From NCBI GenBank assembly GCA_900767645.1, contig CAAFZY010000035.1:1130-65129 (forward strand): DNA of 64,000 bases, written 5' to 3'. Position 1 is the first letter of the stretch; every line of letters starts with the position of its first letter. The stretch is from Alphaproteobacteria bacterium. GTDB taxonomy: Bacteria > Pseudomonadota > Alphaproteobacteria > RF32 > CAG-239. Of this stretch, positions 5,489 through 28,288 are shown piece after piece. Position numbers and translations under genes: made by a program. Below the pieces are notes generated by a model. The model was given only the letters and a program-made list of their open reading frames with translations. It was not told where the DNA came from and did no database searches.

Positions 5489-5668
5489 TTTATAACCTTT
5501 GTTATTCTAATACGACATAAAACCTGTTCTATAATTATAATTTATTTATATTCTAAAATCAATCAGACAAATACAATATTAACATTTCTTATATTTCTTT
5601 GTGCAAAAGATAAATTTATTGTGGTAGAATGCTTCTTTTATTCATACCATAATGTGAGGAGGTACATT

Positions 5669-8360: not shown

Positions 8361-8377
8361 TATAACTATAAAAATAA

Positions 8378-8802: not shown

Positions 8803-8818
8803 TTCATATCAAAATATA

Positions 8819-9055: not shown

Positions 9056-9071
9056 TCACGATTTTGTATAT

Positions 9072-10301
9072 TCATACTTTCTTCCTTCTGAAATCTGTGA
9101 TTTCACCTGCCTTAAAGTTATAAATTGGCTTAATAATCTTTATAATTTCTGCAGTAGGCGTAATATTGTTTACAATATCATCCATATTTTTATAAGCCAT
9201 TGGACATTCATCAAGAGTATCCTCATTAATGGAAGTTGTATAAATTCCTTCCATAGAGCTTTTGAACTCTTCTACATTAAAATTTCTTTTTGCCTGCATA
9301 CGGCTATAAAGTCTTCCTGCGCCATGTGGAGCTGAATAGTTCCAATCAGGATTACCTTTACCTATGCAAATTAAACTACCATCACGCATATTAATTGGAA
9401 TAAGTATCTTTTCACCATCTTTTGCAGATACCGAGCCTTTGCGTAGAATCATTGCATCTGTATCAATGTAGTTATGAATAGTTGTGAAGGTTTCAACTAT
9501 ATGTAATCCTAGAGCTTCAATCATACTCTCTGCCATTGCTTTACGATTATACACGGCATACTTTTGCACGATTTTCATATCGTGAATATAATTTTCAAAC
9601 AATTTTCCTTCTAAATAAGCTAAAGACTTCGGAATATTAGTAATTACTTGAGATTTTAATTCTTTGATTGTCTTTTGTATCTCTGCTTGTCGCCCTTCTT
9701 TTTTCAATCTTGTAATTGTTTCTTCCAATTGCGAAGAAGAGTTATTGTTTAGGTGTTTGTATGCCTCTTCTTGATAGTATTCTGCAACTTGTTTGCCTAG
9801 ATAACGACTACCAGAGTGAACTACAAGGTAGATATTTCCATCGTCATCACGGTCAACCTCAATAAAGTGATTGCCTCCGCCGAGCGTTCCCATACTATGA
9901 ATAGCACGGTGTTTGTTGATTTGGCTTATGCATTGCAAATCCTCTATATCAATATTATTGATGTATTCGTGCGGAGTTTCACGAACAGTCATACCTGCAG
10001 GAATAGCAGCATATATAAACTCATCTAGTTTTTTAAGGTCTATATCCTTTTCTTTTAAGAGATAAGTAGCCATACCACAACCGATATCCACGCCTACAAG
10101 GTTTGGAACAATTTTATCTTTGATTGTCATAGTTGTTCCGATAGTGCATCCTGCACCTGCATGAACATCTGGCATAATACGAATTTGGCTTCCCTTTACA
10201 AATTCTTGGTCGCAAAGAGTTTTAATTTGTTCTTTGGATACATCATCCATAACATCCGTAAAAACCTTTGCTATATTATTATTTCCTTTTATTTCAATCA
10301 T
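9072..10301 (-). CDS. rtcB: RNA-splicing ligase RtcB (3'-phosphate/5'-hydroxyl RNA ligase)
   Basis: 409 aa with hallmark RtcB motifs: MPDVHAGAGCTIG, GGNHF, and the Cys/His-rich C-terminal metal/GTP site ...APHGAGR... Confidence 0.8.
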   Translation of the reverse strand: MIEIKGNNNIAKVFTDVMDDVSKEQIKTLCDQEFVKGSQIRIMPDVHAGAGCTIGTTMTIKDKIVPNLVGVDIGCGMATYLLKEKDIDLKKLDEFIYAAIPAGMTVRETPHEYINNIDIEDLQCISQINKHRAIHSMGTLGGGNHFIEVDRDDDGNIYLVVHSGSRYLGKQVAEYYQEEAYKHLNNNSSSQLEETITRLKKEGRQAEIQKTIKELKSQVITNIPKSLAYLEGKLFENYIHDMKIVQKYAVYNRKAMAESMIEALGLHIVETFTTIHNYIDTDAMILRKGSVSAKDGEKILIPINMRDGSLICIGKGNPDWNYSAPHGAGRLYSRMQAKRNFNVEEFKSSMEGIYTTSINEDTLDECPMAYKNMDDIVNNITPTAEIIKIIKPIYNFKAGEITDFRRKKV

Positions 10302-10610: not shown

Positions 10611-10622
10611 GGTTAATCTCCT

Positions 10623-11225: not shown

Positions 11226-11252
11226 TTTTATTTTCCTTTATATCATCAAAAC

Positions 11253-11804: not shown

Positions 11805-11884
11805 AAGTTTTATTTTTTCTTGATTATCTTTGGCGACAGCAGCTAGTGATGTAAATAAAACCGAAAATCCTCGCTCATCTTTGG

Positions 11885-11930
11885 CATTGAGGTCTAGCCT
11901 CTTGTTTTTTAATAATATTTTGCGGTTCGT
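11885..11930 (+). repeat. Repeat family copy B (about 45-bp partial copy)
   Basis: cattgaggtctagcctcttgttttttaataatattttgcggttcg matches the cores of copies A (8433-8476) and C (18497-18540). Confidence 0.6.
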
Positions 11931-12187
11931 GTAAAGCCGTACTACAAAGCACTATTTTTGCAAGCTATACGAACCGGCTTTCACAACTTTTTTTATTTTT
12001 CAATACATTAAACCAGTTCGAATACAACCTGACCTTTGGGATATATGATAAGCATTTCAGATACCAATACCCGCCGCCAACTGCCTCCATGTAGCCGCCA
12101 TGGCAACCGGCATATCCATACTTTTTTAGATAATCACCAATTACACCTGCAATTTTCTATAAAGATTCAAGTATATATCTTACAACC

Positions 12188-13849
12188 TTATTTTATATTT
12201 ATCCTATCTTCCCAACTTAATTGCACTTTAAAATTTTTGCTCCGTAGATCATTTATTACATTATTCAATTGCATTTGGGCAAAAAAAGGAAGACGTTTTT
12301 CGACATTGCTACTAGTTAAAATTATATACTTTACAGTACTGCCTCGCCAATTTTCATTAATATGCTTAGTACAGTCCGGTATTTTTGAATTTACTGCTTC
12401 AACAAAACGCTCCGGTATTTGAGCATAAGTATCTGCAGAGACCAAACCCTGTGCAAATAAGTGGCTAAGAGAGTCTGGACCTCGTCTTATTTTTGAATGA
12501 ATAAAAACTTTTTGCTGAGGAATAAACACATCACAGACTTCTATTTGAGTATCATACACCACAATATGCTTATCCGCATTATCAAATAATTCTGCAGAAA
12601 GCTCAGAACTTACCTCTTTATTATAACAATATTCTCTCCTTACTTTTTTAGTTCCTAATGCTATATAATTTTGAATATTTTTATTAGCCCTATCAACACC
12701 AACTGAGCTCAACAAAACAGTTTTATCTTCAACCATCGCTATATTTGCTTTAATATCATTATATTTATCCCTATTTATATCAAATAACTCCCCATGAGAA
12801 ATAAAATAGACACTTCCATTTGCTTCAAATTCACCATATAAGCAATCAAGTAAATTCCATTTTTTTAGTTCACGTCCATCATCATCTAAAATAATCACAT
12901 TTTCACTTTCTAGCTTTTGATAGGTTAATTTTTGACCCTTTGCATACGTAGCGATATCAAAATCTGCACTTTCTACATCTCCAATTTTAAAATGATCTAT
13001 TTGAGCCAAATTAATATCGGTATCAGGTTCAAAGAAAAAGAAATCAGACAAATTATTTGATAATTTTTCTGAAATTATATCCTTCATATCATTCGTCATT
13101 TCGACAGGTGACAACCCTTTAAATAATTTCTTTTTGTCTTCTTCTGTTACAGAATCATAAATATCAATTAATTGACATAAACTTCCCTTCAGTTGTTCTA
13201 AAGAAATATTTTCATCCTCGTCATCAAGTATATAATTTAATGTTACATTAAGGGAACTATAGCTCCCCACCATTCCATGATAAAATTGTTTTTTATCTTT
13301 TGCGTAAGCCGTAACTTCTCTAATAACCTCATTATCTTTCAGCATAATATTAAAATTTTCATCATCAACCGATGCACCAAACATTCTATCTTTATTTATC
13401 GGGTTAGAGCTTATTTCTCTACTTTTTCCTCGTTTAATAGAAGCCCTCCCATCTACAAGCTCTTTATGTGCGATATATATACCAAAATATTTATTAATAA
13501 CTGATTTTTTTATAGAAAAATGTCCTGTTGCATAATTAAGTATAAACATATAATTTTTATTGTTTCTAGTAACAGGAATTAATACACTCGCTCCTTGCGA
13601 GAGTGTGTCTAATAATTTATTAGCAATATCTATTCCTGTAGTTTTTCTTAATTTCTCTGCCCAATCTGGTTTTTTATAATTTCCTTGTCTTCTATATATC
13701 ACACAAGAAGCATTGTCTAAATAAGTATTATAATTTTCAGGATAAATAATTTTTGACTCATCAAATTCTTCAATTACATCACTTAAATTCCGCAATGTAA
13801 CATCATTAGCCAACATTAAGGTTACATTTGTTTTAACAACTTTAGACAT
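12188..13849 (-). CDS. Hypothetical 553-aa protein, defence-island orphan (possible PD-(D/E)xK-type nuclease near C-terminus)
   Basis: Start placed at MSKVVKTN (AAGGA RBS 9 nt upstream) rather than the ORF-track start at 13906. No canonical NTP-binding motif. C-terminal VVYDTQIEVCDVFIPQQKVFIHSKIRRG resembles a D...E.K nuclease core. Confidence 0.55.
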   Translation of the reverse strand: MSKVVKTNVTLMLANDVTLRNLSDVIEEFDESKIIYPENYNTYLDNASCVIYRRQGNYKKPDWAEKLRKTTGIDIANKLLDTLSQGASVLIPVTRNNKNYMFILNYATGHFSIKKSVINKYFGIYIAHKELVDGRASIKRGKSREISSNPINKDRMFGASVDDENFNIMLKDNEVIREVTAYAKDKKQFYHGMVGSYSSLNVTLNYILDDEDENISLEQLKGSLCQLIDIYDSVTEEDKKKLFKGLSPVEMTNDMKDIISEKLSNNLSDFFFFEPDTDINLAQIDHFKIGDVESADFDIATYAKGQKLTYQKLESENVIILDDDGRELKKWNLLDCLYGEFEANGSVYFISHGELFDINRDKYNDIKANIAMVEDKTVLLSSVGVDRANKNIQNYIALGTKKVRREYCYNKEVSSELSAELFDNADKHIVVYDTQIEVCDVFIPQQKVFIHSKIRRGPDSLSHLFAQGLVSADTYAQIPERFVEAVNSKIPDCTKHINENWRGSTVKYIILTSSNVEKRLPFFAQMQLNNVINDLRSKNFKVQLSWEDRINIK

Positions 13850-14124
13850 TATATTTTCCTTTCTTAAAACCAGTAACAAAGATAGAAAACAGTTTTCTGT
13901 TATCACCTTAAATTTATAACATATAATTTTTATAATTTCAACAAAAAGTTTAAATATAAAAATAAGGCATTTAATTAGTATAGGCGCGGAGCACTTAGCA
14001 TTTCATAGCTATAAATCGACTCGCTGATGTTTGATGTTGTTTAATAGCTTATAAAGCCCAAAATATTTCTTGAAATCACAATCGTATTAATATAACAATA
14101 GATATTATTAAAAGGAGTTTCATT

Positions 14125-15039
14125 ATGATACCTAATTTCCAAGTATTTATGTTGCCTGTTCTTAAAGCTGCTGCACAAGGTTCTGTCAATATTTCTGATG
14201 TTGTTAAAAAAATTGCAGACGAAATGAACATTTCTGAAGAAGATAGAACTATAAAATTATCAAACGGAAACTCTCTGCTCTATGGGCGCATATCTTGGGC
14301 TAAAGCATATCTGTTACAAGCCGGATTACTAGAAAGTGTTGGTAGAGGGCAATTCACTACTACCGCAGAAGGATTAGCTCTTTTAGCAAAAAATCCTCAA
14401 ATAATAAATAACAAAACTCTAGAAAAATATCCGAGTTTCATAGCATTCCGAAAAAGAAGCAAAAAGTCAAAAGAAAAATCAGAAACTGATACTGAAAATT
14501 CTGATTTAGATGAGCTATCTCCAGAAGAAGCAATTCACCAATCTTTAGAAACTTTAAATTCTTCCTTAGCTAGTGAACTACTTAGTAGAATGTTAAAATC
14601 AACTCCGACATTTTTTGAAAATCTTATAATCAAACTGCTAATTGCAATGGGATACAGTAACAACACAGATGAGGGCTGGGAGCACACGGGAAAAACCGGT
14701 GATGATGGCATTGATGGAATTATCAACCAAGATGTTTTAGGTGTTGATAAGATTTATATTCAAGCAAAAAGATATGCAGACAACCACCCGATAACTTCCG
14801 CTGATTTAAGAAATTTTATCGGCGCACTGGATATGTGCCGTGCTGTCAAAGGTATTTTTGTCACCACTTCCGCCTTTACTAATGATGCCAAAAATACTGT
14901 AAAAAAATCATCAAAAAATATTGTTCTTATTGATGGCAACAAATTAACACAACTTATGATAAAATATAGCACAGGATGCAAAAACAAAGAGACTATTCAT
15001 ATTCAAAAAATTGATGAAGATTTCTTTGAAGAAATGTAA
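14125..15039 (+). CDS. mrr: Mrr-family restriction endonuclease (modified-DNA restriction)
   Basis: N-terminal Mrr_N winged-helix-like region. C-terminal Mrr_cat PD-(D/E)xK core GDDGIDGIINQD...IYIQAKRY...GIFVTTSAFT. Confidence 0.75.
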   Translation: MIPNFQVFMLPVLKAAAQGSVNISDVVKKIADEMNISEEDRTIKLSNGNSLLYGRISWAKAYLLQAGLLESVGRGQFTTTAEGLALLAKNPQIINNKTLEKYPSFIAFRKRSKKSKEKSETDTENSDLDELSPEEAIHQSLETLNSSLASELLSRMLKSTPTFFENLIIKLLIAMGYSNNTDEGWEHTGKTGDDGIDGIINQDVLGVDKIYIQAKRYADNHPITSADLRNFIGALDMCRAVKGIFVTTSAFTNDAKNTVKKSSKNIVLIDGNKLTQLMIKYSTGCKNKETIHIQKIDEDFFEEM

Positions 15040-15057
15040 TCATTTTAGTATACATTA

Positions 15058-16536
15058 TTAATACAGGCATAAACTATTTTCTATTATTTTATCATAATAA
15101 GACTGTTCATTTGCATCATCATCTGAAGAGCCATATTTATACTGGTACTGCATAGCATTAGACTTAGCCGTTTCTAGTAAATTAAAAAGCTCTAAAAACT
15201 TTTTTCTCCCATTATATCTTCTTATATCAGACTTTAATATATCATCTTTATATTTCAGGACATTATCTATATAAATGTAAAACTCTTTATATGTTGCAAA
15301 ATTGTCCTTCCCGACATTCCAGCTATTTACCTCCTGATGATAATTTTTTTCAAAACTATTATACTCAAGGTAACCATCAAGATTATATGCTCTCCGTGAA
15401 AGATCTTTAATGCTTAACATATTTTGCCTTGTATTCAAACCATATGATGAATCTGCAAACGGATGATTTGTATCTAAAGTAAGTTTATCATTGTATTTTG
15501 AACAAAGCTTATAGATAAGATATTCAGCCATTATTTTTTTGTTAATTTTGTTTGAAAGACATACAAACTCATTGCAAACATTTATTAACTCTCTATATGT
15601 AAGCTTTCCTTTATATGCATACTTTGTTATATTTTCAATAACCGTATTGTAACCATTAAAACCATCAGTATCTTCTATAACCTTCTTTTTAATTATATTT
15701 TTTAATTTAGTTTTAGATATATGAGTTTCTACTATTTTTTTATAATATTTTTCATCCGATGTGGGAAAAAGATAATTTTCTGTAATAAATTTTCTCATAT
15801 AATACTCAGAATTTTTAATATCGCCGTATGTTGACTGCACTGCCTGCACTAAAGCTTCGTTATTAACCGGCAATATTACATACAAATTATCTAAATCAAA
15901 AAAATGTTTTATAATTTCTAATGTTTTTAAAGCATAATCTGGACGACATCTATCTAGTTCATCAATGATAATTATTAACGGTTTAATACGGTTATTCACC
16001 AATATTTTAGCCAATTCTTTTTTAAATTCTTTCACTTCATCTTTTGTTTCTAAAAAGCTTTTACATAATTTTTCTAAATTATTTTCTATTCCTATTGAAA
16101 AAAATTTTAAATTAACTCCTACCTGTATACTAGATGATAACAATATCTTTTTGGCAACATTTGTAACCTTTTCTTTTAAAGTTGTTATGCTACTGTTTAC
16201 AGATGGCCTTAAATGCATTGTAAAATAATTCAAAATTTCTTTTGCAATAAAGCAAAACGGTGAAGGCTGATAATCGTTTTCCCACGCACTTATATATATA
16301 CAATGGTATCCATTCTTTTTAGCATGTTCACAAAATCTACTAAAAAAGTATGTTTTTCCCATTCCGTAAGAAGCCTCGACAGATAAAACATACGGATATT
16401 CATCATCTTCTATTTTTTTCAATAAATTATTGGCTAATTCAAGTGTCCCAGGAATAGCATCTTTCCATAAATTTTGTGTTTCAGCTTTAAAATCTTCTTC
16501 CGTTAAATTATATATATTAGCAAAGTCTTTTGGCAT
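15058..16536 (-). CDS. KAP-family P-loop NTPase
   Basis: Walker A SYGMGKTYFFSRF. Extended Walker B/KAP signature IIIIDELDRCRPDYALKTLEIIKHFFD. Start chosen at MPKDF (GGAGA RBS). Confidence 0.7.
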   Translation of the reverse strand: MPKDFANIYNLTEEDFKAETQNLWKDAIPGTLELANNLLKKIEDDEYPYVLSVEASYGMGKTYFFSRFCEHAKKNGYHCIYISAWENDYQPSPFCFIAKEILNYFTMHLRPSVNSSITTLKEKVTNVAKKILLSSSIQVGVNLKFFSIGIENNLEKLCKSFLETKDEVKEFKKELAKILVNNRIKPLIIIIDELDRCRPDYALKTLEIIKHFFDLDNLYVILPVNNEALVQAVQSTYGDIKNSEYYMRKFITENYLFPTSDEKYYKKIVETHISKTKLKNIIKKKVIEDTDGFNGYNTVIENITKYAYKGKLTYRELINVCNEFVCLSNKINKKIMAEYLIYKLCSKYNDKLTLDTNHPFADSSYGLNTRQNMLSIKDLSRRAYNLDGYLEYNSFEKNYHQEVNSWNVGKDNFATYKEFYIYIDNVLKYKDDILKSDIRRYNGRKKFLELFNLLETAKSNAMQYQYKYGSSDDDANEQSYYDKIIENSLCLY

Positions 16537-16737
16537 ATTCATTTCTCCGACTAATTTCTTTTTTAAGAGTATTATCACGTGTAATAATGAAAAACAAGTG
16601 TTTTAAAAAGCGTACGTCAGGATTCAACAGTAAGCATTACCCCCTAATCATAATTTTATTTGCTTGAAAATTGGTGGAATTTTACGTAGCATACATTTAA
16701 TCTGCTTATTTATCAACCAGATATAAGGTATCGCCGC

Positions 16738-16890
16738 ATGAAAAAAGCTTTAGTCGCGTTATTTTTACTACTATTTGCCATTCCGGCTTTAGCTTCAGAC
16801 AGCGCCACCGTTGTGATGAACATTAAAACATATATTTACCATAAACCAACCTGCACTATAGATTTGGTGCATTACAGACTTTGCCTCTAA
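16738..16890 (+). CDS. Small secreted peptide (50 aa; signal peptide MKKALVALFLLLFAIPALA plus a 31-aa mature part with 2 Cys)
   Basis: ATG with AAGG upstream and a classical Sec signal peptide. Below ORF-track cutoff. Confidence 0.35.
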   Translation: MKKALVALFLLLFAIPALASDSATVVMNIKTYIYHKPTCTIDLVHYRLCL

Positions 16891-17353
16891 ACCTATTGCA
16901 AATGCTTGAAGTAAACACAAAACAAAAAATATTTCTAGTATAACCATGCTTTAATCCTTTATTTGAATTTGAACATATGATGAGTTTATTACTACTATAA
17001 AAAAATATAAGGCGCAATTGTTTTTATTGCCCAATTTTGTTATAAAACACCCTACAATTACCGAATTGTCTTTTTCTAATAAAATATATATTAAATCTGA
17101 AATCGCTCACATAGGGTAAGAAAATAAGCTCTAAAAAATATTGAAAAGGCGGCATACCGCCCTTCCAATATTTTGTTTATATATAATACATTAAGAAAAT
17201 ATTTTTCCAGCAGTCTTAAAAAGTTTTCCAACATGATAAAACCAATTTTTTTGGTGAATAATACGTTCTTTATGATAATTTCCTGTCACCACTTCTTTTT
17301 TAGTCATTTTAGAATACGTTTCCAATTTTCATCAAAAACGTATGTCGCATTAT

Positions 17354-18112
17354 CTAGAGATGTACTTTCCAATATGGAAAGATGTTCTTCTTGATATGTA
17401 TAAACCGTGTAATTTCTAAAATACGAAGCTCCAACATAAACGGCTGAAGGATGTTGAGACATAAGATAATCGTGCCTTGTTGCAATAAATTGTTGCTCTC
17501 TTTTGTTTTTTTATAAAAATTCGGGCAGACATCTATAATTGATAAATTTTTTCCTTCAAATTTATGTCCTTGCGGAAAGATTATCCATGGTAATCTCTTT
17601 ACAATTTGAACGTTGTCAACACTATCTGTTACCACGCAGGAACCAAAAACTTCCAAAAACATATTAACAACATGCAAGAGCCTTTTGGCATCAGTTTTTT
17701 TAATTGGCTCAGAAATCACGCATTTCTTATTTTTTGAATATATCATTATCTCCAAAGGAGGCAGTTCTTCCGTAACAGGATAACATTTTCTGTAAATATC
17801 ACAAAATCTACCTTGTTCTTCACCATTCCATAATGTCCACGTCCAATATATTGTATTAACATATCGTTTTTCTTTAGGTCTGTCTTTATGCACTACATGT
17901 TTTCCATTCAGATTGTAATCTGTGAATCGTCCTAGCTCACATGGCACAACATTATCCCCATTCTCTATTGGAAGAGAAAAACCTACTTTTTTTAGCATAT
18001 CATCAGAAATATTTGGTTCAGATGTAACAATGACACTATTCGCTTTAATATTGGCAATTTCTTTAAGAAAAGAACTACTGCTTCGTTTATATTTTTTATT
18101 TATAAAAATCAT
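17354..18112 (-). CDS. Hypothetical protein (252 aa)
   Basis: Long ORF, no recognisable motifs. Isolated between the KAP NTPase gene and repeat copy C. Confidence 0.45.
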   Translation of the reverse strand: MIFINKKYKRSSSSFLKEIANIKANSVIVTSEPNISDDMLKKVGFSLPIENGDNVVPCELGRFTDYNLNGKHVVHKDRPKEKRYVNTIYWTWTLWNGEEQGRFCDIYRKCYPVTEELPPLEIMIYSKNKKCVISEPIKKTDAKRLLHVVNMFLEVFGSCVVTDSVDNVQIVKRLPWIIFPQGHKFEGKNLSIIDVCPNFYKKTKESNNLLQQGTIILCLNILQPFMLELRILEITRFIHIKKNIFPYWKVHL

Positions 18113-18450
18113 ATTTTTTACCTCTTTTTACTAAATTAATGTTGTTAAAAATATGAAACTTTATACTTGACTAAATTGCAAAATGCTATAATAGTATTTT
18201 TTGTAAAAGATTCAGAAGCATAAAGTTTCTACTTGCGGTTTTGGAGTCGTTATCTCCATTGCCGCATTTATTTTAATTTACAACAATATCTCGTCAAGTT
18301 TTAAAGACTATTTGTTCACAATTTGTTCGAATTTTACAAATAAAAAAATACTCAGAATTCCTTTACAAAAGGCCATTTTATTATTTTTAAGTATTGCTGT
18401 TAAAATCAACCTCTGGTTTTTGACACCCATAAGTTAAAAACAATCAAAAT

Positions 18451-18647
18451 TTTGGCTCGAGAACCGTGAATTCACCCCAGCCAGACTGGACAGAGGTTAG
18501 ATTTTGAGGCCTAGCCTCTTGTTTTTTAAGGATATTTTGCGGTTCGCAGAAGGCGTTTTTTGAAATCATCTTCGAACTGGTGTCATCAAAAATATGACAC
18601 AATCAAGATGTTATGATATTTATGCCTATTTCTGAAGGCGCCATATA
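18451..18647 (+). repeat. Repeat family copy C (197 bp)
   Basis: See copy A; matches across both halves. Confidence 0.7.
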
Positions 18648-18689
18648 GTTTCCTATTATTTACCCAAATTAAATGAAAATTTGAAACGT

Positions 18690-19526
18690 TTAGTGACAAG
18701 GAAAAATTTCTTGTGTTGCTTGAACAATTAGCGGCCCCACCTGTTCTTCAGTTGAATTTTGCGAAATATTATTTATTTCTCTTTCAAGATATTCATTTAT
18801 TTTTCCTATATCATTCATAAGTTTAGCCGTATCTTTCAAATGCTTCCAATGGTCAACATTGCAAACTTTTCCCTCTTCATACAATGAAACTATAACATGA
18901 TGAATGACTCCTATGTAGTTTCGATAATATTCCAATTCTTTATCAGACGGGTTAAATGGCCAAGACAAAATTACCTTTCCCCAACTACTACCTTTTGCAT
19001 GAGTTTTAGCATCTAATATAGAATCATGGCGATCTATTTTCTTGCAAATTGATATTGCATTATTCAAGCCATTTACAGATAATATGGGATACGTAGTATC
19101 GTAGTTGTTATAGAATTTATATCCGATAATTGCCAAAATAAAAACTAAAGAATAAATAAGAGCTTGAAAGCGCTCAAATTTAAGCCTTAAAATTGATTTT
19201 CTACAATCCTTATCCAACTTATTAATTAGTAAAGGTTTTAAGTAATCAGCACACACTGTTGCTTCAATTTCATTAAGAGCATCGCAGAAGTTGTTTATAA
19301 TATTAATCATCTCTTCTTTAGAAGTTTTGTCCTTAAGCCCTTTATATATAAAATCATTTACAAAATCTGTAACCCTCTCTTTGCTTTTTGAAATAACCTC
19401 ATTTAGCTTTTCTTTATCAAGCGTTTTATCCTTCAATAGTTCTTTTTCAGATAAAATTATATTCACTCTTTCTATTATCTCTTTTAATTCTTCATCCATG
19501 TTCTTTTCCTTACACTTATTAATCAA
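18690..19526 (-). CDS. Hypothetical protein with one central TM helix (278 aa)
   Basis: ORF. Hydrophobic segment LIYSLVFILAIIGYKFY. 12-bp gap to the upstream gene on the same strand. Confidence 0.5.
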   Translation of the reverse strand: MINKCKEKNMDEELKEIIERVNIILSEKELLKDKTLDKEKLNEVISKSKERVTDFVNDFIYKGLKDKTSKEEMINIINNFCDALNEIEATVCADYLKPLLINKLDKDCRKSILRLKFERFQALIYSLVFILAIIGYKFYNNYDTTYPILSVNGLNNAISICKKIDRHDSILDAKTHAKGSSWGKVILSWPFNPSDKELEYYRNYIGVIHHVIVSLYEEGKVCNVDHWKHLKDTAKLMNDIGKINEYLEREINNISQNSTEEQVGPLIVQATQEIFPCH

Positions 19527-19538
19527 TCTATTTCTTAA

Positions 19539-20846
19539 TTATAGTGCATTTGCTTTTAAAAAATACTTATTTTCACCTTCTTTAACCATTTCAATACCTG
19601 CTTCATCCAAAAATTCACAAATATCCTTAAAGGTAAGTATGTTATCCCATTTATTATCCCATTTTACATCTTCAACAGGAATTCCTTGTTCTTCTGCCAC
19701 TTGTGATATTATAAGAAGTTTTCCAATGCTTTCTAATTCAGAATATATAGTAGTCAGTATATATATTTTACTATTTGCGTTGCTAGATATTATATTTTCA
19801 ACATCTTCTATAGTATAATTATGCTTTGATAAATTATTCTTTAATTGTTTTATTTCACTTGAAAAATATTGTGTAAAATCATTGGGATATTTATTCATCA
19901 TATATCCTTCTTTTTGACATACTTCTTTGTAACCTTTTGTATGTCTATATATAAAACCAACTGATGCCCCTATTTTTTCTTGTTGCTCCTCTGTATATTC
20001 TTCAAGAAACGAATATGTTGTTTTATTATTTTCAGCATTAGGCAAAATACCAATTAATACAAAACCAATTATTACAATTGCAATTTCTCTTAAATTAATT
20101 GTAAATTTAACTGTTTCATTATTATGAGATATATTGTACTCATTGATTTTTTTCTGTACAATTACTAAAAACCATACTGATACAGCAAATAAAACGAGCG
20201 ATAACAGAAGTAAAATAACCAAATAAGTAGTATTGTCTATTTTATCCATAGATATAAAAATAAAATTTGAACCGATTTGGGATATTAAATATCCTATACC
20301 AAGATATTGTAGTTTGATATTAGAATTTATTGATTTGTTAATCTTGGAAAATAAAGATGGAGCGGTTAAATGTATCAACCATCCTCTAACAAAAGGAGAG
20401 ACATCATCTTTTGTTGTTACTTGATATTTTTCCCAATGCTTATATCCCCAATAAAGAGCATAAAATCCAAGTGATAATACTATGCAAAGAATAAATTTTG
20501 TTATTGATATAGAATCATATGATACAACTTTATTTAAATCTGCATTCTTGTGATTTTCAATATAATTATGTAAATATTTCTTATAATGAGTATTCGCCAC
20601 AAAACCTGCAATTAGGTGTGAAATTAACAAAGAAATCAGATATGCATTATCAGTTCCCAACAATGGCGTGAATACATAAGTTAATATTAGTGATGCATAA
20701 AGGAAAATAAAAAAATGTACGTACAATCTTTTATAAAAGAAATATAGAGATGAAAATAAAAATGCCCAAATATTAAAAATTGAATTATATTTTTTACTAT
20801 CTTTTAATTCTTCTTGATATTTTTTCACATAACCAAGTGTATCCAT
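19539..20846 (-). CDS. Multi-pass membrane protein with ~180-aa C-terminal soluble domain (435 aa)
   Basis: 6-7 predicted hydrophobic helices in the first ~270 aa, then a hydrophilic C-terminal domain. Confidence 0.55.
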   Translation of the reverse strand: MDTLGYVKKYQEELKDSKKYNSIFNIWAFLFSSLYFFYKRLYVHFFIFLYASLILTYVFTPLLGTDNAYLISLLISHLIAGFVANTHYKKYLHNYIENHKNADLNKVVSYDSISITKFILCIVLSLGFYALYWGYKHWEKYQVTTKDDVSPFVRGWLIHLTAPSLFSKINKSINSNIKLQYLGIGYLISQIGSNFIFISMDKIDNTTYLVILLLLSLVLFAVSVWFLVIVQKKINEYNISHNNETVKFTINLREIAIVIIGFVLIGILPNAENNKTTYSFLEEYTEEQQEKIGASVGFIYRHTKGYKEVCQKEGYMMNKYPNDFTQYFSSEIKQLKNNLSKHNYTIEDVENIISSNANSKIYILTTIYSELESIGKLLIISQVAEEQGIPVEDVKWDNKWDNILTFKDICEFLDEAGIEMVKEGENKYFLKANAL

Positions 20847-21062
20847 AGTAAATTCTCCGTGTTTATTATATATCTACAATAAAGATTATAATAAAACATT
20901 TTAATTTAATATCAACTAAAAATTTCAAATCAGAAAACCAAAGCCAATTCAATCACTTTAACGCCTTTTCCTTTGGCGGCTTTACAGAACTCATAGGCTT
21001 TGCCATCGGCAGTTGTTTTGCAGCCTTTGCGACGGATAATACAAAAAAAACATCAAATTTGA

Positions 21063-21542
21063 TTATATAATAAAATCACACGTACTGAAAAGACATTGGT
21101 TATAGTTTGAGCCATCTTCATTTACGCATTCTGCCATACATGCATCTTCGCGCCTACGCAAATCAGAAAAATATAACGTGGCAATGGCAATTAATATCCA
21201 TGCCGCAACATTAATTGCTATACGATTATTACAGGTTTTATTTTTAACGCTGTCAAAGCACTGAAAAGCCACAACAAATGGCATAATCAGCAAATAAAGT
21301 TTTGAGCCGTATGCTAAAATTGCACTGATTACCCATAAAATGTATTTTATTATATATTCGCACACCCATTCCAAAAGCTCTGATTTGTTAAATACCACGA
21401 CGCATATAAACAATAAAACAAATACCACAACCAAGGCAATCAATGCATCAAAAACCACATGATTTAAGACCTTACTGATAAAATTACATTTATCAATTTT
21501 ATGAGGGTATTTAATTTGAATGTAATCATATATCTTTAGCAT
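21063..21542 (-). CDS. Small multi-TM membrane protein with Cys-rich C-terminus (159 aa)
   Basis: 3-4 hydrophobic helices. C-terminal ACMAECVNEDGSNYNQCLFSTCDFII. Start overlaps the stop of the upstream nucleotidyltransferase gene (21536-21542). Confidence 0.5.
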   Translation of the reverse strand: MLKIYDYIQIKYPHKIDKCNFISKVLNHVVFDALIALVVVFVLLFICVVVFNKSELLEWVCEYIIKYILWVISAILAYGSKLYLLIMPFVVAFQCFDSVKNKTCNNRIAINVAAWILIAIATLYFSDLRRREDACMAECVNEDGSNYNQCLFSTCDFII

Positions 21543-22336
21543 TTTTCATATCCCTTAACACCTAAACAGCTTTGCAAATACGCATCAAACGGCGCCATAT
21601 CCCTTTTGCGCTTATTAAATTCCGGATACGGTTTAGCGAGTTCCTGTTTGAAAAATTCATCAAAAAGCGGAATATGCAAAACTTTTTCTTTTTCAGCCCC
21701 CGCGGATTTAATGGCAATAACTTCATTGAGCTTGGTAATCACATCTTGCGGCAACAAAACGGACAAATCCGCAACCGTCTCAACCATTTTCAGCGGCGGA
21801 ATTTTATCAAACTCGCACACATATTTGGCATTAAGCAGTCCGCGCATGGAGTACAGATATTTTTTATAAGTAATTTCTTTTCCTTCTTTGATGTTAAGAT
21901 TATAATTATTTTTAAACAGCGAAAAATAATGATAAAAAAGCTTTTCTTGGCTAAAGTTTTTATTTACATAAGCTTTAAGCTCAATATCCGTACTGCCTAA
22001 ATAAACTATCGGCGAATTAAGCCACTCAATCGCCGTAGGGTTTGAAGTTGACAACAATTTAAGATATTTAAAAATATCAAACCCGCACATATCAAGCAAT
22101 GAGCCTTTAACCTCATGCGGCTGAAAATTTTCATCATAAGCAAGGGTGATAACTTCTTCAGGCTTATCAAGTTTTATATACTCAGCAAGCGGGCGGCAAA
22201 AAACAAAGCGCACATCATAATCGCTGTCTTTGCTGCTCATGCCCCACGCGCGGCTGCCGTTTTCAATCGCAAACAAAACAGTAACATTCTGTTCTTTCTC
22301 AACATTTTTCAACAGCTCAACAATCTTTTCCCGCAT
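21536..22336 (-). CDS. Pol-beta-superfamily nucleotidyltransferase (minimal, 266 aa)
   Basis: GS-x9-DhDh motif: ENGSRAWGMSSKDSDYDVRFVF. Helical C-terminal region. Translationally coupled to the downstream membrane protein. Confidence 0.6.
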   Translation of the reverse strand: MREKIVELLKNVEKEQNVTVLFAIENGSRAWGMSSKDSDYDVRFVFCRPLAEYIKLDKPEEVITLAYDENFQPHEVKGSLLDMCGFDIFKYLKLLSTSNPTAIEWLNSPIVYLGSTDIELKAYVNKNFSQEKLFYHYFSLFKNNYNLNIKEGKEITYKKYLYSMRGLLNAKYVCEFDKIPPLKMVETVADLSVLLPQDVITKLNEVIAIKSAGAEKEKVLHIPLFDEFFKQELAKPYPEFNKRKRDMAPFDAYLQSCLGVKGYEKC

Positions 22337-22515
22337 ATCTTCCTCTTATGTTTTAGTGTTAAGCAAATCTATCCAATACGGCATAACGTATCAAATACTA
22401 CTTGCTTTGCGCCTATATGGTTTATATGTAAAATTTAATTTATCATACCTAAAGCATAGCAAAATACAAGCAATAATTTAACTTATATACTTTTATTCAT
22501 TAAATGAAACAAAAG

Positions 22516-23112
22516 TTAATACCCGCGGTCGGGAGGAAGTTCAACACCTTCATAAAGGTGTTTTTCGGGGCTGTATGTAATGTGCACATAATCGCAATTA
22601 TCCATACGTTGCACTTTATAATTAAACAGATTTTCAATCAGAGCCGTAACGGCGTGTCCGTGCGAGGCAATCCCGATAACCCGATTTGAGCAATTTTCTG
22701 CAATATCTTCAAGTGCTGCCTTTAAGCGCATACTAACCTGCAACAGGCTCTCGCCTTGCGGAAACGGAATGGAAATATCTTCATACGAGCGACGGTAATC
22801 GGGGCATAACTCTTCCCGCTCAAGAGCATAAAGTCCGTTCAAAATACCATAATCAACCTCACGCAGGCGGGAGTCAAACTTAACCGGAACTTTTAATATT
22901 TGCGCCACAATTTCAGCGGTTTGTTTGGCGCGTAACAAATCAGAGCTTACTATCAGCTTAATTTTTTTATCGGCAAGCTTTTGAGCCAACACTCGCGCCT
23001 GCTCTTGTCCGTTTATGGTTAAAGGCACCGGATATTCGCTCTGCCCTTGCGGGCGACCTTCCGCGTTCCAAATAGTCTGTCCGTGACGAAATATGTAAAA
23101 ATGCTTTTTCAT
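22516..23112 (-). CDS. Histidine phosphatase family protein (phosphoglycerate mutase-like)
   Basis: N-terminal RHGQT.WN catalytic motif (FRHGQTIWN). Second His in SHGHAV. 198 aa. Confidence 0.7.
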   Translation of the reverse strand: MKKHFYIFRHGQTIWNAEGRPQGQSEYPVPLTINGQEQARVLAQKLADKKIKLIVSSDLLRAKQTAEIVAQILKVPVKFDSRLREVDYGILNGLYALEREELCPDYRRSYEDISIPFPQGESLLQVSMRLKAALEDIAENCSNRVIGIASHGHAVTALIENLFNYKVQRMDNCDYVHITYSPEKHLYEGVELPPDRGY

Positions 23113-23190: not shown

Positions 23191-24138
23191 CTAATAGTCA
23201 TGAAATGCCTGAATATGGAAATATTGCAAAGGTTTAGAAACCGGCTTATAGCGCTGCTCCTGCTCTATCAACCCAATTTCAGTTAAAAACATACCGCGGT
23301 ATTTTTCGGGGATATTCAGCTTGCGTAATTGCAACTCCCAAAAATGTTGCATATCAGACATATTGCCTTTAAGATAACCGTTAACATCGTTAAGGTTATT
23401 GCGCTTGGCAGAGGCAATACTTTTGGCAACAATTTCCGTACGCATTTTGATAAGCTCTTTATCTTTGCTGTGCTCTTGCGCGTAACAATAGGCTCCGGGC
23501 AAAAGCCCGCGGGTTAAATAGAGCGGAATATTAAAGCCTTTGGTTTGGGTCGGCGAAATTCCGGGTCGTTGTGCAAACGGTTGCACATCAATAATATATG
23601 CCTGCCTATCGCGACTTGAATACAGCAAATTTCCGGTATTGGTAAACAAGCCCAAAGAGCAAATATCAACCGAATGACGACGCGATGAAAGATAATGTAA
23701 ATCATCATACAAAATATCAAAAGACTCATCGGGCATATCCGCAATTTTTTCTGACCACGTGCGGGTTTTAATTAAAGCCTCTTCATTATCCAAAAACGGC
23801 AACCCAGGTTTATTAATTTCTATTGAAAAGCCGGGAGAATAGCGGTTAATAATCAAAATCGTATCGCCGCCACGTATATCCGGATGGTTCCAATAGGCAA
23901 TCGGTTGTGCAAAATTACGTCCGGCAAAAATATCTTCTTGCGGCTTAAACGGATAACGCTTTAAATAATCAACCAAAACCGAAACCGCCGGTGCATCTTG
24001 ACTGACCTGCACCGTAAAATCCGGATTAGTATCAATTTTATAAACTTTTACTTCTTCGCCCTCACCCAAACAGCGGTCGCATATAGCGGTGATTACCTCG
24101 CTGACAAGCGGCAAATTATAGTGATATGTATCTTCCAT
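23191..24138 (-). CDS. Hypothetical protein (315 aa), possible effector
   Basis: ORF only. No confident motif. Confidence 0.45.
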   Translation of the reverse strand: MEDTYHYNLPLVSEVITAICDRCLGEGEEVKVYKIDTNPDFTVQVSQDAPAVSVLVDYLKRYPFKPQEDIFAGRNFAQPIAYWNHPDIRGGDTILIINRYSPGFSIEINKPGLPFLDNEEALIKTRTWSEKIADMPDESFDILYDDLHYLSSRRHSVDICSLGLFTNTGNLLYSSRDRQAYIIDVQPFAQRPGISPTQTKGFNIPLYLTRGLLPGAYCYAQEHSKDKELIKMRTEIVAKSIASAKRNNLNDVNGYLKGNMSDMQHFWELQLRKLNIPEKYRGMFLTEIGLIEQEQRYKPVSKPLQYFHIQAFHDY

Positions 24139-24287: not shown

Positions 24288-24914
24288 ATGAAACGGATTA
24301 AAAAAATTATCGTTAACGTTACCAGCGTTAATCTTGCTGCGATTGATGCTGACGCCATTGTGGTACCGGAGTTTCAGCATTGCGCGCTTCATAGCGGAAT
24401 TGGCAGAACTATCGCCAAAACCTACCCTGAGGGTATGCAGAAATATGACTATTACGCCAAAGCGGCAGGAAGTTCGCTCGGGAGCGTGGTGGTTACTGAA
24501 ACCGGCTCAGCAACTTGCAAACACCTGCTTCATGCGGTTATTCTTGGCTGTTGCCGCGAAGATTTATTCGCCTGTGTTAAAATCGCAGTGGAAAAAGCCT
24601 TGGTTTTAGCTGATGAAAACGGCGCCTTACTCGTGGCTATTCCTACGCTCGGCACCGGAGTAGCCGGATATTTATCGGTTGAACAATCCGCCAAAGCCGT
24701 GTTTGCCGCCGTTGCAGAATTTGCTCCGTTTGCCAAGAACATCCGCAGAATTGACTTTGCGGTTTCAGTCGGCTCGGTTAAAGTTGTGGAAGATATTCTG
24801 CAACAAGAAAGTTACCTTGACTGCGAGACGGAAATTGACGGCAAAAAATTCGGCGAATGGATTTACACGCTGTGCAATCAGCTCAACAGCGGTGTGCCGG
24901 AGGTTAGTTGTTAA
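24288..24914 (+). CDS. Macro-domain-like protein (ADP-ribose binding/processing)
   Basis: DADAIVVPE...GIGRTIAK and LLVAIPTLGTGVAGY resemble the macro-domain DAIVNAAN and SIAFPAISTGVYGYP segments. Confidence 0.45.
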   Translation: MKRIKKIIVNVTSVNLAAIDADAIVVPEFQHCALHSGIGRTIAKTYPEGMQKYDYYAKAAGSSLGSVVVTETGSATCKHLLHAVILGCCREDLFACVKIAVEKALVLADENGALLVAIPTLGTGVAGYLSVEQSAKAVFAAVAEFAPFAKNIRRIDFAVSVGSVKVVEDILQQESYLDCETEIDGKKFGEWIYTLCNQLNSGVPEVSC

Positions 24915-24958: not shown

Positions 24959-27900
24959 TTATTCGCGGCCTTTGTTTTTGATTGCGGCCTGCACATATAT
25001 ATCCGTCTTTTGGATTTGCGGGGCTTCCTTAGTACGCAAAAATTGAGTTTCCGCCTTGGTCAACAGCGTGTTAATACCCATGCGGAGCTTGTGGAAGAAC
25101 CTACCCTTTTCTTTTTTAGACATATCTTTAACCGCCTCCGGCGCCTGCTTTACCGCAACTTGCGGCTGTACCTGAGGCTGAATGGTCTGAGCATCTGATT
25201 GAACGATATGACGTTTTACCATATCACGCCCGCTGAGGCTAGCCAAACGCTCTTTATCCTGTTGCACAATATCCACTTTAGGCTTTGCCTGTTTACTTGA
25301 ATTTTTAGTCGTTTTACTCGGCATAACTTTAGCAACTAACTTTTTAACCGGCGCCAAAATTCTCTCTTTGCGCAACTCTGATATTTCCTTTGTTGAAAGC
25401 CCCTTGGCTTTAAGACGTTTAAGAGGAACTTTTTTGCCATTTTCATCTTTAGCATCCACAATTTTAACATGGGGCGGAATATTAAATTTTCCAACGCCCC
25501 GAGAATCAATACAAGACGTTGTAATTTCTTTAACACATTGCGGCAACCGCACATTACCAGAATTATATGAAGTCAGCTTTTGAGGCAGCTTTAATTCAGC
25601 GCATTGTACTGACGGGTCTATGTTACCTTGTTCGCAACGCGACAAGTCTAATTTATAATCTGGCGCAAATTTAACATTCTCGCCAATATAAACTCTTCCC
25701 TGTTGCGGCGGAATAACCGTAGCGCCGGATAAATCAACATTTTGCAATCTAACGCTTTCATATTTTGATAAGTCAACCGCACCATTAACAACAACATTAG
25801 TCAAGTTCAAAGATTTCAATGACTGTGGAATTTGCTGTAAATTAGACATGTCAAACGATTGACTATTACAAACGCGTAAACTTTCTAAATTTTGCGGTAA
25901 AACAATAGAATGAGTACATCTTTCTATACCAAGTCCTTTGGTTGGATGCTTGGATAAATCTAAATTAATTCCATCTAAGGCAATAACACTATCTTCTAAA
26001 TTTTTTGTTTGTTCAATAATTTTAAGGTCTTCTATGGTTCTTGCAACATCACCTTGGTATATATTTCCTTTAAATTCAACAGCGCAAATATCTTTCGGGA
26101 AAGATGTGATATTCATCTGCGAATTACCTTGTGATCTGAAATCAAAATTATTATTAATAACCAAATGCCCATCAGGAGCTTTTGATGTGTTTTGAGCGAC
26201 CCACTCCTGCCCTTTGGTTTTGAGCAAAAAAGATTCCATAGTTATATTTTTCAAATCGCCTTCAAAATTCAAACCGCTAATTCCGCTTTTGGTAATCGGG
26301 AAATTATCTAACGAGGTTACTTTTTCTGTTGGATTTAAGATAATGGATTTAACCGTCATATTTTTCATTTCTGACGGCAACTTCACAATATTTGTATTAT
26401 ATAAATCCAATTCTATATTATCATGCAGTTCAGTGTGTTTAACGCCTTGGGCTAATAAGGCTATCGGGTCACCTATATCAGTACCAAGATTTCCTTTAAT
26501 TTTATATATAAAATCGGCGGCAGACATGTTTTCAATAGAGCTTTGATCTTTGATTGTAAGGCTATTCAAAGCTCTTATACCTTTTAATGTTTCAGGAACT
26601 TTATCTATCGTATCATACGGAATGTTTATACCTGGCGGCAATTCTACAAATTTAATTTTATCCCACCCGACAGGCATCCCATCGCACTGCATTGAAGATT
26701 GCAATGAATTGGTGTTAATGTACCCATTATACTCTTGTTTTGCTTCTGCGCCAATTATCTGTAAAAACCTTTCGGCTGAAACCGCAGAAACATTTTTAAC
26801 ATTTATATTGTCTAAAAGAATACCTTGAGTCGTTGTCGGTAACTTAGCCGCATCTATTTCCGGTATATTGCTATCTTTTATATGAAAAAAACCGACAACA
26901 TTTACAGAAGATAAATCAGGTATTCTGTTTAGAAGCAATCTATGTATATATAACAAATCTTCACTAGCCTGCAAACCGTTTTCTGTTTCTTTAATATCGC
27001 CATCATGCATAAAATTACGCAAAAACTCTTTGGCACTCATATTGTTAAGATACTCTTGATTATCGGCTTCTAATCCTTGTTTAAGTTCAAATGTATAGGC
27101 ATGATTGGGATTTAATTCTTGTTCTTTTTTTTGCATATTTTGACGATCTTTTACATACCCCAAAACCTTATCATCGGTCGGTTCATGCAAAGCCATAAAA
27201 TCACGCCATTCCGAGTCTGCAATTTTACCGTTTTCGTCAAGCGGAATAGAATATATTTTTGCTTCATCCATATGTGGAGCTGGATACCCCACATAAACAT
27301 ATATAGCTTCTAATTTATTATGGTGAGGTAAAATTGGTGTTTCGTATAGTTGTGCATTTATAGCTGCTTCAGGTAAATCAAGATCAAATACATCAATTTC
27401 TTTTTTTGCAAATGACTTTGATCCTAATTCAATTCCAAGGTTTTGGTAGAATTTTTGCTCATCACCCATACTTGCAAACTTATAGATAAAGCCATATTCA
27501 AGTCCGCTTTTAGTTTTTTCATGAACAGCGCCGCCCCTGGTGGAACTATTGTTTCCTTTTCCGCTGTATTCGGCGGAAACTGTTATATTTGGTGATGAAT
27601 GCGCAACCTTTCTGGAATTCCATTGAGAGACAGTTGCATAAGGGCTAGCCCCCAATGTGCCTCCGCGAAACAAATCCGACATTCCGTTTCCATATATATT
27701 ACTAATATACATGGCATGAAAATTAACATCCTCAGCATCGGCATAAGCCTCATTTATTTTTCGGTCAATAAAACTTTTATAATCACCGCCGTTACGTTGT
27801 TCAATTTCTTGAAACCGAAGAGGATCGGGATGTTGATCTTTGAGATCTATACCATGTTCTCGTGAATTCTTAACTTCATGATTAGCGGCATAAAGCAAAT

Positions 27901-28288
27901 TCTCCTGCATCTGTGGATTAGCGTGTCCAACTATTAAGAAACCATCATTTAATAGAACGTCTTCTATAAATGTTACCGCTTTTAATGAATCTTCCGGCTT
28001 CATGAATGGGCATAAAACGCCTGATGGCTCTACAACAAATTTATCAGTACGTGCAGCCTGAGGATCAATAAAAGAAACCGCATCAACACCATGTTTTCGT
28101 AAAAGATCCACCATTTTATCAATTGGTTCATTAATATTACCATTAAATGGTTTATTTGCTTGGACACCTATCGCGGCAGCCACCGGCTTGTCCAAACCTT
28201 CAAAATAGTTTGAAAGAGTATGTCTGATTGCATCTTGGTTTTCGGTTTGGGCAATTACCGCGTCTATGTCTTCTTTCGTCAGCGCCAT
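24959..28288 (-). CDS. Large leucine-rich-repeat protein (1109 aa), eukaryotic-like effector candidate
   Basis: Central LxxLxLxxN-type repeats (LKSLNLTNVVVNGAVDLSKYESVRLQNVDLSG..., LESLRVCNSQSFDMSNLQQIP...). Basic low-complexity C-terminus. Confidence 0.6.
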   Translation of the reverse strand: MALTKEDIDAVIAQTENQDAIRHTLSNYFEGLDKPVAAAIGVQANKPFNGNINEPIDKMVDLLRKHGVDAVSFIDPQAARTDKFVVEPSGVLCPFMKPEDSLKAVTFIEDVLLNDGFLIVGHANPQMQENLLYAANHEVKNSREHGIDLKDQHPDPLRFQEIEQRNGGDYKSFIDRKINEAYADAEDVNFHAMYISNIYGNGMSDLFRGGTLGASPYATVSQWNSRKVAHSSPNITVSAEYSGKGNNSSTRGGAVHEKTKSGLEYGFIYKFASMGDEQKFYQNLGIELGSKSFAKKEIDVFDLDLPEAAINAQLYETPILPHHNKLEAIYVYVGYPAPHMDEAKIYSIPLDENGKIADSEWRDFMALHEPTDDKVLGYVKDRQNMQKKEQELNPNHAYTFELKQGLEADNQEYLNNMSAKEFLRNFMHDGDIKETENGLQASEDLLYIHRLLLNRIPDLSSVNVVGFFHIKDSNIPEIDAAKLPTTTQGILLDNINVKNVSAVSAERFLQIIGAEAKQEYNGYINTNSLQSSMQCDGMPVGWDKIKFVELPPGINIPYDTIDKVPETLKGIRALNSLTIKDQSSIENMSAADFIYKIKGNLGTDIGDPIALLAQGVKHTELHDNIELDLYNTNIVKLPSEMKNMTVKSIILNPTEKVTSLDNFPITKSGISGLNFEGDLKNITMESFLLKTKGQEWVAQNTSKAPDGHLVINNNFDFRSQGNSQMNITSFPKDICAVEFKGNIYQGDVARTIEDLKIIEQTKNLEDSVIALDGINLDLSKHPTKGLGIERCTHSIVLPQNLESLRVCNSQSFDMSNLQQIPQSLKSLNLTNVVVNGAVDLSKYESVRLQNVDLSGATVIPPQQGRVYIGENVKFAPDYKLDLSRCEQGNIDPSVQCAELKLPQKLTSYNSGNVRLPQCVKEITTSCIDSRGVGKFNIPPHVKIVDAKDENGKKVPLKRLKAKGLSTKEISELRKERILAPVKKLVAKVMPSKTTKNSSKQAKPKVDIVQQDKERLASLSGRDMVKRHIVQSDAQTIQPQVQPQVAVKQAPEAVKDMSKKEKGRFFHKLRMGINTLLTKAETQFLRTKEAPQIQKTDIYVQAAIKNKGRE

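Follow-up and report, generated by a model that had tools for sequence, protein, structure and literature searches.

Four consecutive minus-strand genes, located between positions 18690 and 22336 of a 64,000-nucleotide stretch of an alphaproteobacterial genome (contig CAAFZY010000035.1; the whole stretch is here referred to as "the window"), were analyzed. They encode a 266-aa (amino acid) nucleotidyltransferase (NTase), a small membrane protein of 159 aa (p159) and two further membrane proteins of 435 and 278 aa. By its sequence the NTase is assigned to the RlaP family (PF10127) of Pol-beta nucleotidyltransferases, with intact catalytic residues; it is a new member of a known and recently characterised family. 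RlaP and p159 make up a unit of two genes, conserved within the species and located at the edge of a tRNA-Gln-linked defence island, and the genes of the 435-aa and 278-aa proteins are a separate cassette. Taken as a whole package, we favour RNA-end repair by RlaP with p159 as its membrane accessory, with a probability of roughly 0.62, and nearly all of the uncertainty is carried by the role of p159.

22336..21536, minus strand: RlaP-family NTase, 266 aa, PF10127
21542..21063, minus strand: p159, small membrane protein of 159 aa, member of the new family
20846..19539, minus strand: 435-aa protein with four transmembrane segments and a DUF2628-like N-terminus
19526..18690, minus strand: 278-aa protein with a single transmembrane segment; TTG start, with an ATG 9 codons further in

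The four open reading frames (ORFs) agree with an initial annotation of this DNA, as do their common strand, the 7 nt shared by the NTase stop and the p159 start (ATGCTAA, 21536..21542, minus strand, read directly from the sequence) and the 216-bp gap between p159 and the 435-aa gene; the 435-aa and 278-aa genes are separated by 12 nt. Hydropathy scanning placed 3–4 transmembrane segments in p159, four in the 435-aa protein and one in the 278-aa protein, again as described before, and the Cys-rich tail of p159 is present (CMAECVNEDGSNYNQCLFSTCDFII). These ORFs are not products of chance, because the NTase has a strong Pfam match, p159 has a conserved family, and the 435-aa protein matches DUF2628 and has a homologue; for the 278-aa protein, an open frame of 278 codons is very improbable in DNA of ~30% GC (about 1e-10 by our estimate). 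AAGGGA sits a few bases upstream of the p159 start, at the overlap, and translational coupling of the two genes is possible.

Identity of the nucleotidyltransferase

The single Pfam match of the NTase is PF10127, "RlaP, RNA repair pathway DNA polymerase beta family", which is aligned over profile positions 1–244 of 249 (E=6e-55; 187.1 bits against a cut-off of 23). When the Pfam search was relaxed to E<=10, only the generic Polbeta model was recovered in addition, without SMODS or CD-NTase. The NCBIfam and PADLOC models gave no match for the NTase, and in PHROGs it matched phrog_14344, annotated as "nucleotidyltransferase" (1.9e-59). A large-database search obtained 606 homologues at E<=1e-5; among the 120 of them listed, all are annotated as PF10127 and most are about 260 aa long. 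In an alignment of 33 sequences G27, S28, D39 and D41 are invariant and D82 is nearly so, and these catalytic residues line up with those of the P. fluorescens RlaP, whose gene stands between those of RtcB and RtcA. Strict conservation of three Asp in RlaP is stated in PMC12776372. The active-site signature had been given as GS-x9-DYDV; the motif is present, but its spacing is G27-S28-x10-D39-Y-D41-V.

The AlphaFold2 (AF2) model of the NTase, with a predicted local distance difference test (pLDDT) score of 91.9, shows strands and helices over residues 1–115 and then helices over 119–258, that is, an N-terminal NTase domain, a C-terminal helical domain and a terminal helix, as in RlaP. A sequence search of the PDB revealed no deposited RlaP structure. 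In the fold search the helical domain matched HEPN-like bundles, and the top Foldseek matches in the PDB were Hailong HalB, the NTase-like protein 3c18 and ANT(4'), with TM-scores (template modelling) of 0.3–0.56 and 8–14% identity; DrrA and GlnE were also found. Judged from the model, these matches to DrrA, GlnE, ANT and HalB are superfamily-level only and amount to a "minimal NTase plus HEPN-like helical domain". cGAS, DncV and CD-NTase are absent from both lists of fold matches. The fold comparison shows that the enzyme is not a CD-NTase, and it places it in neither a resistance family nor the Hailong family.

These results bear on the initial annotation, which had proposed a minimal (type I) cyclic-oligonucleotide-based antiphage signalling system (CBASS) or, alternatively, an NTase of another Pol-beta clade. 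The latter is what was found. The likeness to type I CBASS is one of superficial layout, an NTase followed by a transmembrane gene near defence genes, whereas the window NTase has no SMODS/CD-NTase homology by sequence or by fold. Moreover, a PADLOC match to CBASS was obtained for none of the NTase, p159, 435-aa and 278-aa proteins, and no known transmembrane effector family is present, so that the CBASS-like pair is not upheld. An aminoglycoside/lincosamide nucleotidyltransferase conferring resistance, which the initial annotation had also considered, is extremely unlikely: ANT(4'), ANT(3'')(9), AAD(9) and LinB do occur among the fold matches, but at the superfamily level and with 8–16% identity, no resistance NTase was matched in NCBIfam or Pfam, and the sequence family is unambiguously RlaP. 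More generally, the KNTase/ANT- and GlnE/DrrA-type NTases with a HEPN-like helical domain belong to different sequence families (8–15% identity to the window enzyme), and their substrates are small molecules or proteins, not RNA.

Two members of the family have been studied biochemically. PfRlaP and PaRlaP add one or two nucleoside monophosphates (NMPs) to RNA 3'-OH ends, with damaged RNA preferred, and the proposed role is to restore the nucleotides removed by "smart" ribotoxins before ligation (PMC12776372); the same role is predicted in PMC7824862. The window protein resembles the RlaPs of P. fluorescens and P. aeruginosa in matching the Pfam family over its full length, in the GS...DxD motif with a third Asp, in its two domains (NTase and helical) and in having relatives in RtcB operons. 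It differs in that it is only 33–34% identical to them (E~1e-43) and in that they are encoded between rtcB and rtcA, whereas the window RlaP has a small membrane protein on one side and a His_Phos_1 phosphatase on the other, and the nearest RtcB is 11 kb away in a cassette specific to the strain. No earlier description of a membrane partner exists for RlaP, and the RlaP paper (PMC12776372) makes no mention of membranes.

We then counted the co-directional neighbours in 80 GTDB loci recovered with an RlaP profile. RtcB accounts for 14/49 of the genes upstream of RlaP homologues and RtcA for 14/38 of those downstream; three neighbours are CCA/poly(A)-type NTases and several more are tRNA-related, and a tightly linked multi-transmembrane gene downstream of RlaP is rare. 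The closest relatives, with 65–74% identity, are located in variable operons. In L007 the order is RtcB-215aa-193aa-RlaP-PolyA_pol-133aa with a divergent WYL regulator, in L095 it is RtcB-151aa-RlaP-NUDIX, and in L009 and L100 it is RlaP-PolyA_pol, while in L092, L098 and L102 RlaP closes WYL-regulated strings of uncharacterised proteins. L103 and L088 are grouped with L007 and L095 among the closest relatives in operons of the RtcB-...-RlaP-PolyA_pol kind. None of the accessory proteins in the operons of these close relatives has a Pfam family. WYL-regulated, uncharacterised operons that end in RlaP or stand beside RtcB (L092, L098, L102, L113, L103 and L112) also encode a 140–270-aa "DTxDFxI...IINGK" family, a 70-aa double zinc-ribbon protein and 135–215-aa proteins, again without a Pfam family.

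This context bears on a toxin-type NTase, in which MenT/AbiEii-like extension of RNA 3' ends would block tRNA charging and arrest growth, with p159 as a modulator; we consider it highly improbable. MenT and AbiEii toxins act by adding nucleotides to RNA 3' ends. The chemistry of RlaP, with 1–2 nt added to RNA 3' ends (PMC12776372), is of the same type, and RlaP borders a defence island. However, no AbiEii/DUF1814 or MenT match was obtained in Pfam or PADLOC, the homologues are consistently found with ligases and cyclases rather than antitoxins, and the window species stably retains RlaP, of which 80 variants were found.

The p159 family and its association with RlaP

In a word-index search p159 appeared to be an ORFan, since only its own 99% cluster was returned; phmmer, pairwise BLASTP and exhaustive HMMER overturned this. 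The exhaustive HMMER search of 1.84 billion representatives obtained 14 family proteins at E<=1e-3, of which 10 score below 1e-10; most are 150–160 aa long. Their alignment contains four invariant Cys and the motifs KYPxxIxKCNxISxxL at the N-terminus, an FQCxDxxKNK loop and C135-x3-C139...C150-x4-C155-DF at the C-terminus, with an extreme C-terminal tail of the form ECMxxCVxxDxSNYxECxxSTCDFxI. A profile search with the Cys tail alone recovered only the L010 lineage. The protein has no sequence match in Pfam, PADLOC, PHROGs or the PDB, and a fold search against the PDB gave nothing below E=4.

Within the window species the p159 cluster comprises 40 variants; the 15 variants listed are all 159 aa long and occur on >150 contigs. 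Their substitutions are unevenly distributed, with 0 in the N-terminal 28 residues, 1/25 in the tail and 14/106 elsewhere, so that the N-terminus and tail together have 1/53 variable positions against 14/106 in the remainder (Fisher p=0.021). Substitutions between strains are too few for a ratio of nonsynonymous to synonymous rates (dN/dS). The conserved family, the invariant Cys and the biased variation within the species together indicate that p159 is a real protein under constraint, and that its family is rare and undescribed.

The AF2 model of p159 (pLDDT 84) contains long helices at 15–53, 55–101 and 106–139 and a short helix at 147–154, with C135 and C139 on one helix and C150 and C155 on the next. 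Charged residues number +5/-2 in the N-terminus, +1/-3 in the first loop, +3/-1 in the second loop and +3/-7 in the tail. The model and these counts predict three transmembrane helices with the N-terminus inside and the C-terminus outside. From this topology and the placement of the Cys, the four Cys may form a disulfide-stapled hairpin, which is probably periplasmic.

In related bacteria from gut metagenomes, members of the p159 family repeatedly stand beside RlaP or RtcB; they adjoin RlaP in five lineages and RtcB in two more (L113 and L104). In the window species p159 lies downstream of RlaP at -7 nt, and in the other four the family gene lies upstream. L096 and L097 encode, 83 nt upstream of a 70%-identical RlaP, a 119-aa protein that shares 29% identity with p159 across 121 residues (E=7e-12, BLASTP), and L097 has a second p159 paralogue, with the full architecture, among its upstream genes; in L103 (RlaP 73% identical) a 119-aa form is found with the same 83-nt spacing, and PolyA_pol is downstream. 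In L010 and L088 an 83–90-aa single-transmembrane protein bearing the C-terminal tail of p159 (phmmer) is encoded 12 nt upstream of a 67%-identical RlaP, and in L107 the gap to a 72%-identical RlaP is also 12 nt, with GAGGA between. For a sample independent of RlaP, we searched metagenome and viral sequences with a degenerate DNA pattern for the p159 tail, which gave 11 metagenome contigs and 0 viral ones. Of these 11 contigs, L113 has the order RtcB-271aa-short p159 form, and in L104 a short p159 form precedes an RtcB remnant that is joined to a protein of the modC type described below.

The co-occurrence of the NTase and membrane genes in other genomes, which the initial annotation had proposed to check, is therefore partly borne out, in five RlaP-adjacent lineages, but the gene order varies and many close RlaPs lack a p159-family member. 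For so rare a family the association with RlaP is well above chance, yet it is loose and its order is unfixed. Both the p159 family and its link to RlaP/RtcB operons appear to be undescribed.

Other small membrane proteins were also observed in these operons. A second undescribed family, here called modC, has a single transmembrane segment and a Cys-rich extracytoplasmic domain and is found in RtcB/RlaP operons; its members in L095 and L007 are 49% identical, and that of L104 is fused in frame to a 73-aa N-terminal remnant of RtcB.

L095, 5565-6020: modC member
L007, 10260-10661: modC member
L104, 669-1091: modC member
L106, 2990-3229: modC member

In L102 a pair of single-transmembrane proteins stands in the position equivalent to p159, and in L005, the 85% relative, a different transmembrane protein does. 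With modC and the L102 pair in equivalent positions, the RlaP clade of the window is recurrently accompanied by small membrane proteins, though of differing kinds.

Like the window pair, Hailong (HalA transmembrane ion channel and HalB NTase) combines two genes, one for a membrane protein and one for a small Pol-beta NTase, and HalB is among the best structural matches of the window NTase. One could therefore propose, following Hailong or type I CBASS logic, that the NTase makes a nucleotide or oligonucleotide signal gating p159, so that the membrane is depolarised on infection. HalA is, however, a transmembrane channel with a cytoplasmic domain that binds oligo-dA (PMC13434031), whereas p159 has no PDB sequence or fold match, and the part of its model that faces the cytosol is limited to ~28 residues at the N-terminus and a short loop. 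We regard such signalling as improbable.

The island boundary and neighbouring genes

The species-conserved DNA ends directly behind p159. In blastn comparisons the ~97% identity of L001–L003 to the window extends from 25169 to 21058, ends 5 nt beyond the p159 stop and gives way to unrelated sequence, which marks the 435-aa and 278-aa genes as a separate low-GC cassette. GC content steps down from 42–48% in the core genes to 38% in RlaP, 32% in p159, 25.5% in the 435-aa gene (15.6% at third codon positions, GC3) and 29.7% in the 278-aa gene, and the 435-aa protein is found on ~17 contigs against >150 for p159. The 435/278 pair is the last cassette of the defence island, with RlaP and p159 as its conserved flank. 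Thus the four genes are not one CBASS-like system, as had been supposed; the 435/278 cassette is strain-variable cargo of the island.

In L001–L003 the 435/278 pair is replaced by other cargo (273aa, CTD9, MC5, 670aa and AbiJ), which makes the site just past p159 a hot spot for defence genes. In L001 (10989-16432) the genes next to p159 encode proteins with CTD9 and MC5 domains, a protein of 670 aa and another of AbiJ_NTD3/Abi_C type. The 435-aa protein matches PF10947 (DUF2628) at its N-terminus (5.7e-8), and its C-terminal soluble domain (285–415) is 28% identical (E=2e-14) to a 342-aa four-transmembrane protein encoded directly downstream of RlaP in L005 (8807-9835), a second and unexplained link between RlaP and a membrane protein. 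No relatives of the 278-aa protein were found in Pfam, PADLOC, PHROGs or by tblastn against plasmids, and its exact sequence is not in the collection; likewise, neither PHROGs nor the plasmid tblastn gave a match for the 435-aa protein.

The junction between RlaP and p159 (21536–21555) is itself polymorphic, since some strains of the same species (P0139/P0140) have a 263-aa RlaP ending in ...CLGIKKN rather than ...CLGVKGYEKC. The last ~5 codons of RlaP also differ from those of L005, whose homology ends at 21555 (blastn).

The island itself covers window positions 1837–21058, with a low GC content (25–35%), beside tRNA-Gln (1762–1836). Its features and those of its boundary are as follows.

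2200-3543 and 3503-5488, minus strand: split type IIG restriction-methyltransferase (PDLC03625 positions 662-1107 and 9-666)
5417-7291 and 7281-8360: complete Gabija, GajA and GajB
9072-11804, minus strand: RtcB cassette between repeats A and B, with RtcB, HNH_3 (200 aa) and an ankyrin-repeat protein (183 aa, PDC-M72A)
9072..10301, minus strand: RtcB RNA ligase of this cassette, 409 aa (PF01139, 3.4e-65), 11 kb from RlaP in the same orientation
12188-13906: DUF6119 protein
14125-15039: Mrr type IV restriction endonuclease
15058-16578: KAP NTPase/PDC-S20
17354-18112: uncharacterised 252-aa protein
18452..18650, plus strand: repeat copy C, 88–93% identical to 8378-8804 and also present in L001
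8378-8804, 11887-11929 and 18452-18650 (L001: 14925-15123): copies of the repeat element
20915..20888, minus strand: promoter-like site of the 435-aa gene (consensus scan)
21053..21062: breakpoint between species-conserved DNA (RlaP and p159 side) and strain-variable island (blastn of L001–L003)
22366..22394, minus strand: weak promoter-like site TTGATA-17-TAGATT in the 179-nt gap upstream of RlaP (consensus scan)
22516..23112, minus strand: His_Phos_1 phosphatase, core gene upstream of RlaP (PF00300, 1.4e-43)

The two type IIG ORFs correspond to the C- and N-terminal halves of one model, which probably reflects either a pseudogene created by a frameshift or an error of assembly. Repeats A, B and C begin with a degenerate sequence resembling the 3' half of tRNA-Gln (...GAATTC-ACCCCAGCCA), followed by two terminator-like hairpins; they separate the cassettes of the island and recur in other strains. 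The element is probably a relic attachment (att) site of serial integrations. An exact att-like repeat of the tRNA-Gln 3' end of >=14 nt was not found, the resemblance being only degenerate, and no integrase gene was seen in the island. In the consensus scan, promoter- and terminator-like sites were not more numerous than in shuffled sequence, and Rfam gave nothing credible over 18100–22600.

On the core side, the His_Phos_1 phosphatase (22516-23112), a 315-aa protein (23191-24138) and a Macro-domain protein (24288-24914, plus strand) flank RlaP only in the window lineage and the 85% relative, and the phosphatase/RlaP synteny is restricted to L001–L008. It is pure speculation that the phosphatase could supply 3'-OH ends for RlaP. 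By-products of tRNA splicing are substrates of Macro domains, and the relevance of this to the RlaP flank is equally pure speculation. Further along, the 1109-aa protein at 24959-28288 (minus strand) is replaced by an 864-aa protein in contigs of the same species, and DNA identity to these contigs is broken between 25169 and 28551, which marks a second strain-variable locus in the core region.

Proposed role of the RlaP–p159 unit

According to the literature on the family, RlaP attaches one or two NMPs to 3'-OH ends of damaged RNA, with the proposed effect that ends shortened by ribotoxins can be rejoined. We infer that the window enzyme would heal RNA ends cut by nucleases together with an RNA ligase encoded elsewhere; in the window strain the island RtcB, which is 84% identical to the RtcB of the L007 RtcB–RlaP operon, could be this ligase. 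p159 may then be an accessory of the RNA-damage response, with its N-terminus cytosolic and its disulfide-stapled four-Cys hairpin periplasmic. Most plausibly, although this is conjecture, it would anchor this response to the inner membrane or control it there, at the point of entry of imported nucleases or phage.

Several points weigh against this reading. The role given to p159 is conjectural and its topology is a prediction, and the biochemistry of RlaP comes from PfRlaP and PaRlaP, not from the window protein or its subclade. No RNA ligase adjoins RlaP in the window, and the island RtcB is strain-specific, being present on only 2 contigs in the collection. The order of the two genes in the window is the reverse of that in the other four lineages. 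Among the 11 contigs with the p159 tail, many of which are too short to judge, RlaP is present on one (L107) and RtcB on two; L112 (13.8 kb) and L110 carry a p159-family gene with neither RlaP nor RtcB nearby, although they share other genes with RlaP operons, and the close RlaPs of L089, L092/L098 and L009/L100 have no p159-family member.

Some of these points would fit the absence of any functional link, with p159 a small, fast-evolving membrane gene of variable, mobile neighbourhoods that RlaP and RtcB also share, and the overlap a by-product of recombination at the island edge. Homology breakpoints at both ends of p159 (21555 and 21058), the polymorphic C-terminus of RlaP, the inconsistent gene order, the members without RlaP, and integrase-like and recombinase genes in p159/RlaP neighbourhoods are all consistent with it. 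Nevertheless, we hold it to be unlikely: five RlaP adjacencies with gaps of -7 to 83 nt and two RtcB associations in a family of ~14 clusters are far above chance, the family genes lie close to RlaP, at 12 nt in L010/L088 and with a Shine-Dalgarno-like GAGGA filling part of the gap in L107, and the pair persists across >150 contigs of the species, in contrast to the variable DNA downstream of it.

A stronger form of the preferred reading, RNA-end repair with a membrane accessory, would make RlaP and p159 a dedicated module that couples an event at the inner membrane or in the periplasm to nucleotide addition at RNA ends. The Cys hairpin would then sense or withstand a nuclease toxin or phage entry, and the module would be either membrane-triggered RNA repair or a guard resembling Hailong, with a small membrane effector under the control of the NTase. 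We think this doubtful, more so than the absence of a link. If it were true, modC, the L102 pair and the C-terminal domain shared by the 435-aa and 342-aa proteins would mark a general, undescribed membrane arm of bacterial RNA-repair or conflict systems.

The present locus cautions that an NTase beside a transmembrane gene at a defence island is insufficient to call CBASS. RlaP has only just been characterised, with a proposed role as an antidote to nucleotide-removing ribotoxins. A rare membrane family that recurs beside RlaP and RtcB hints at an undescribed, envelope-linked component of RNA-repair modules.

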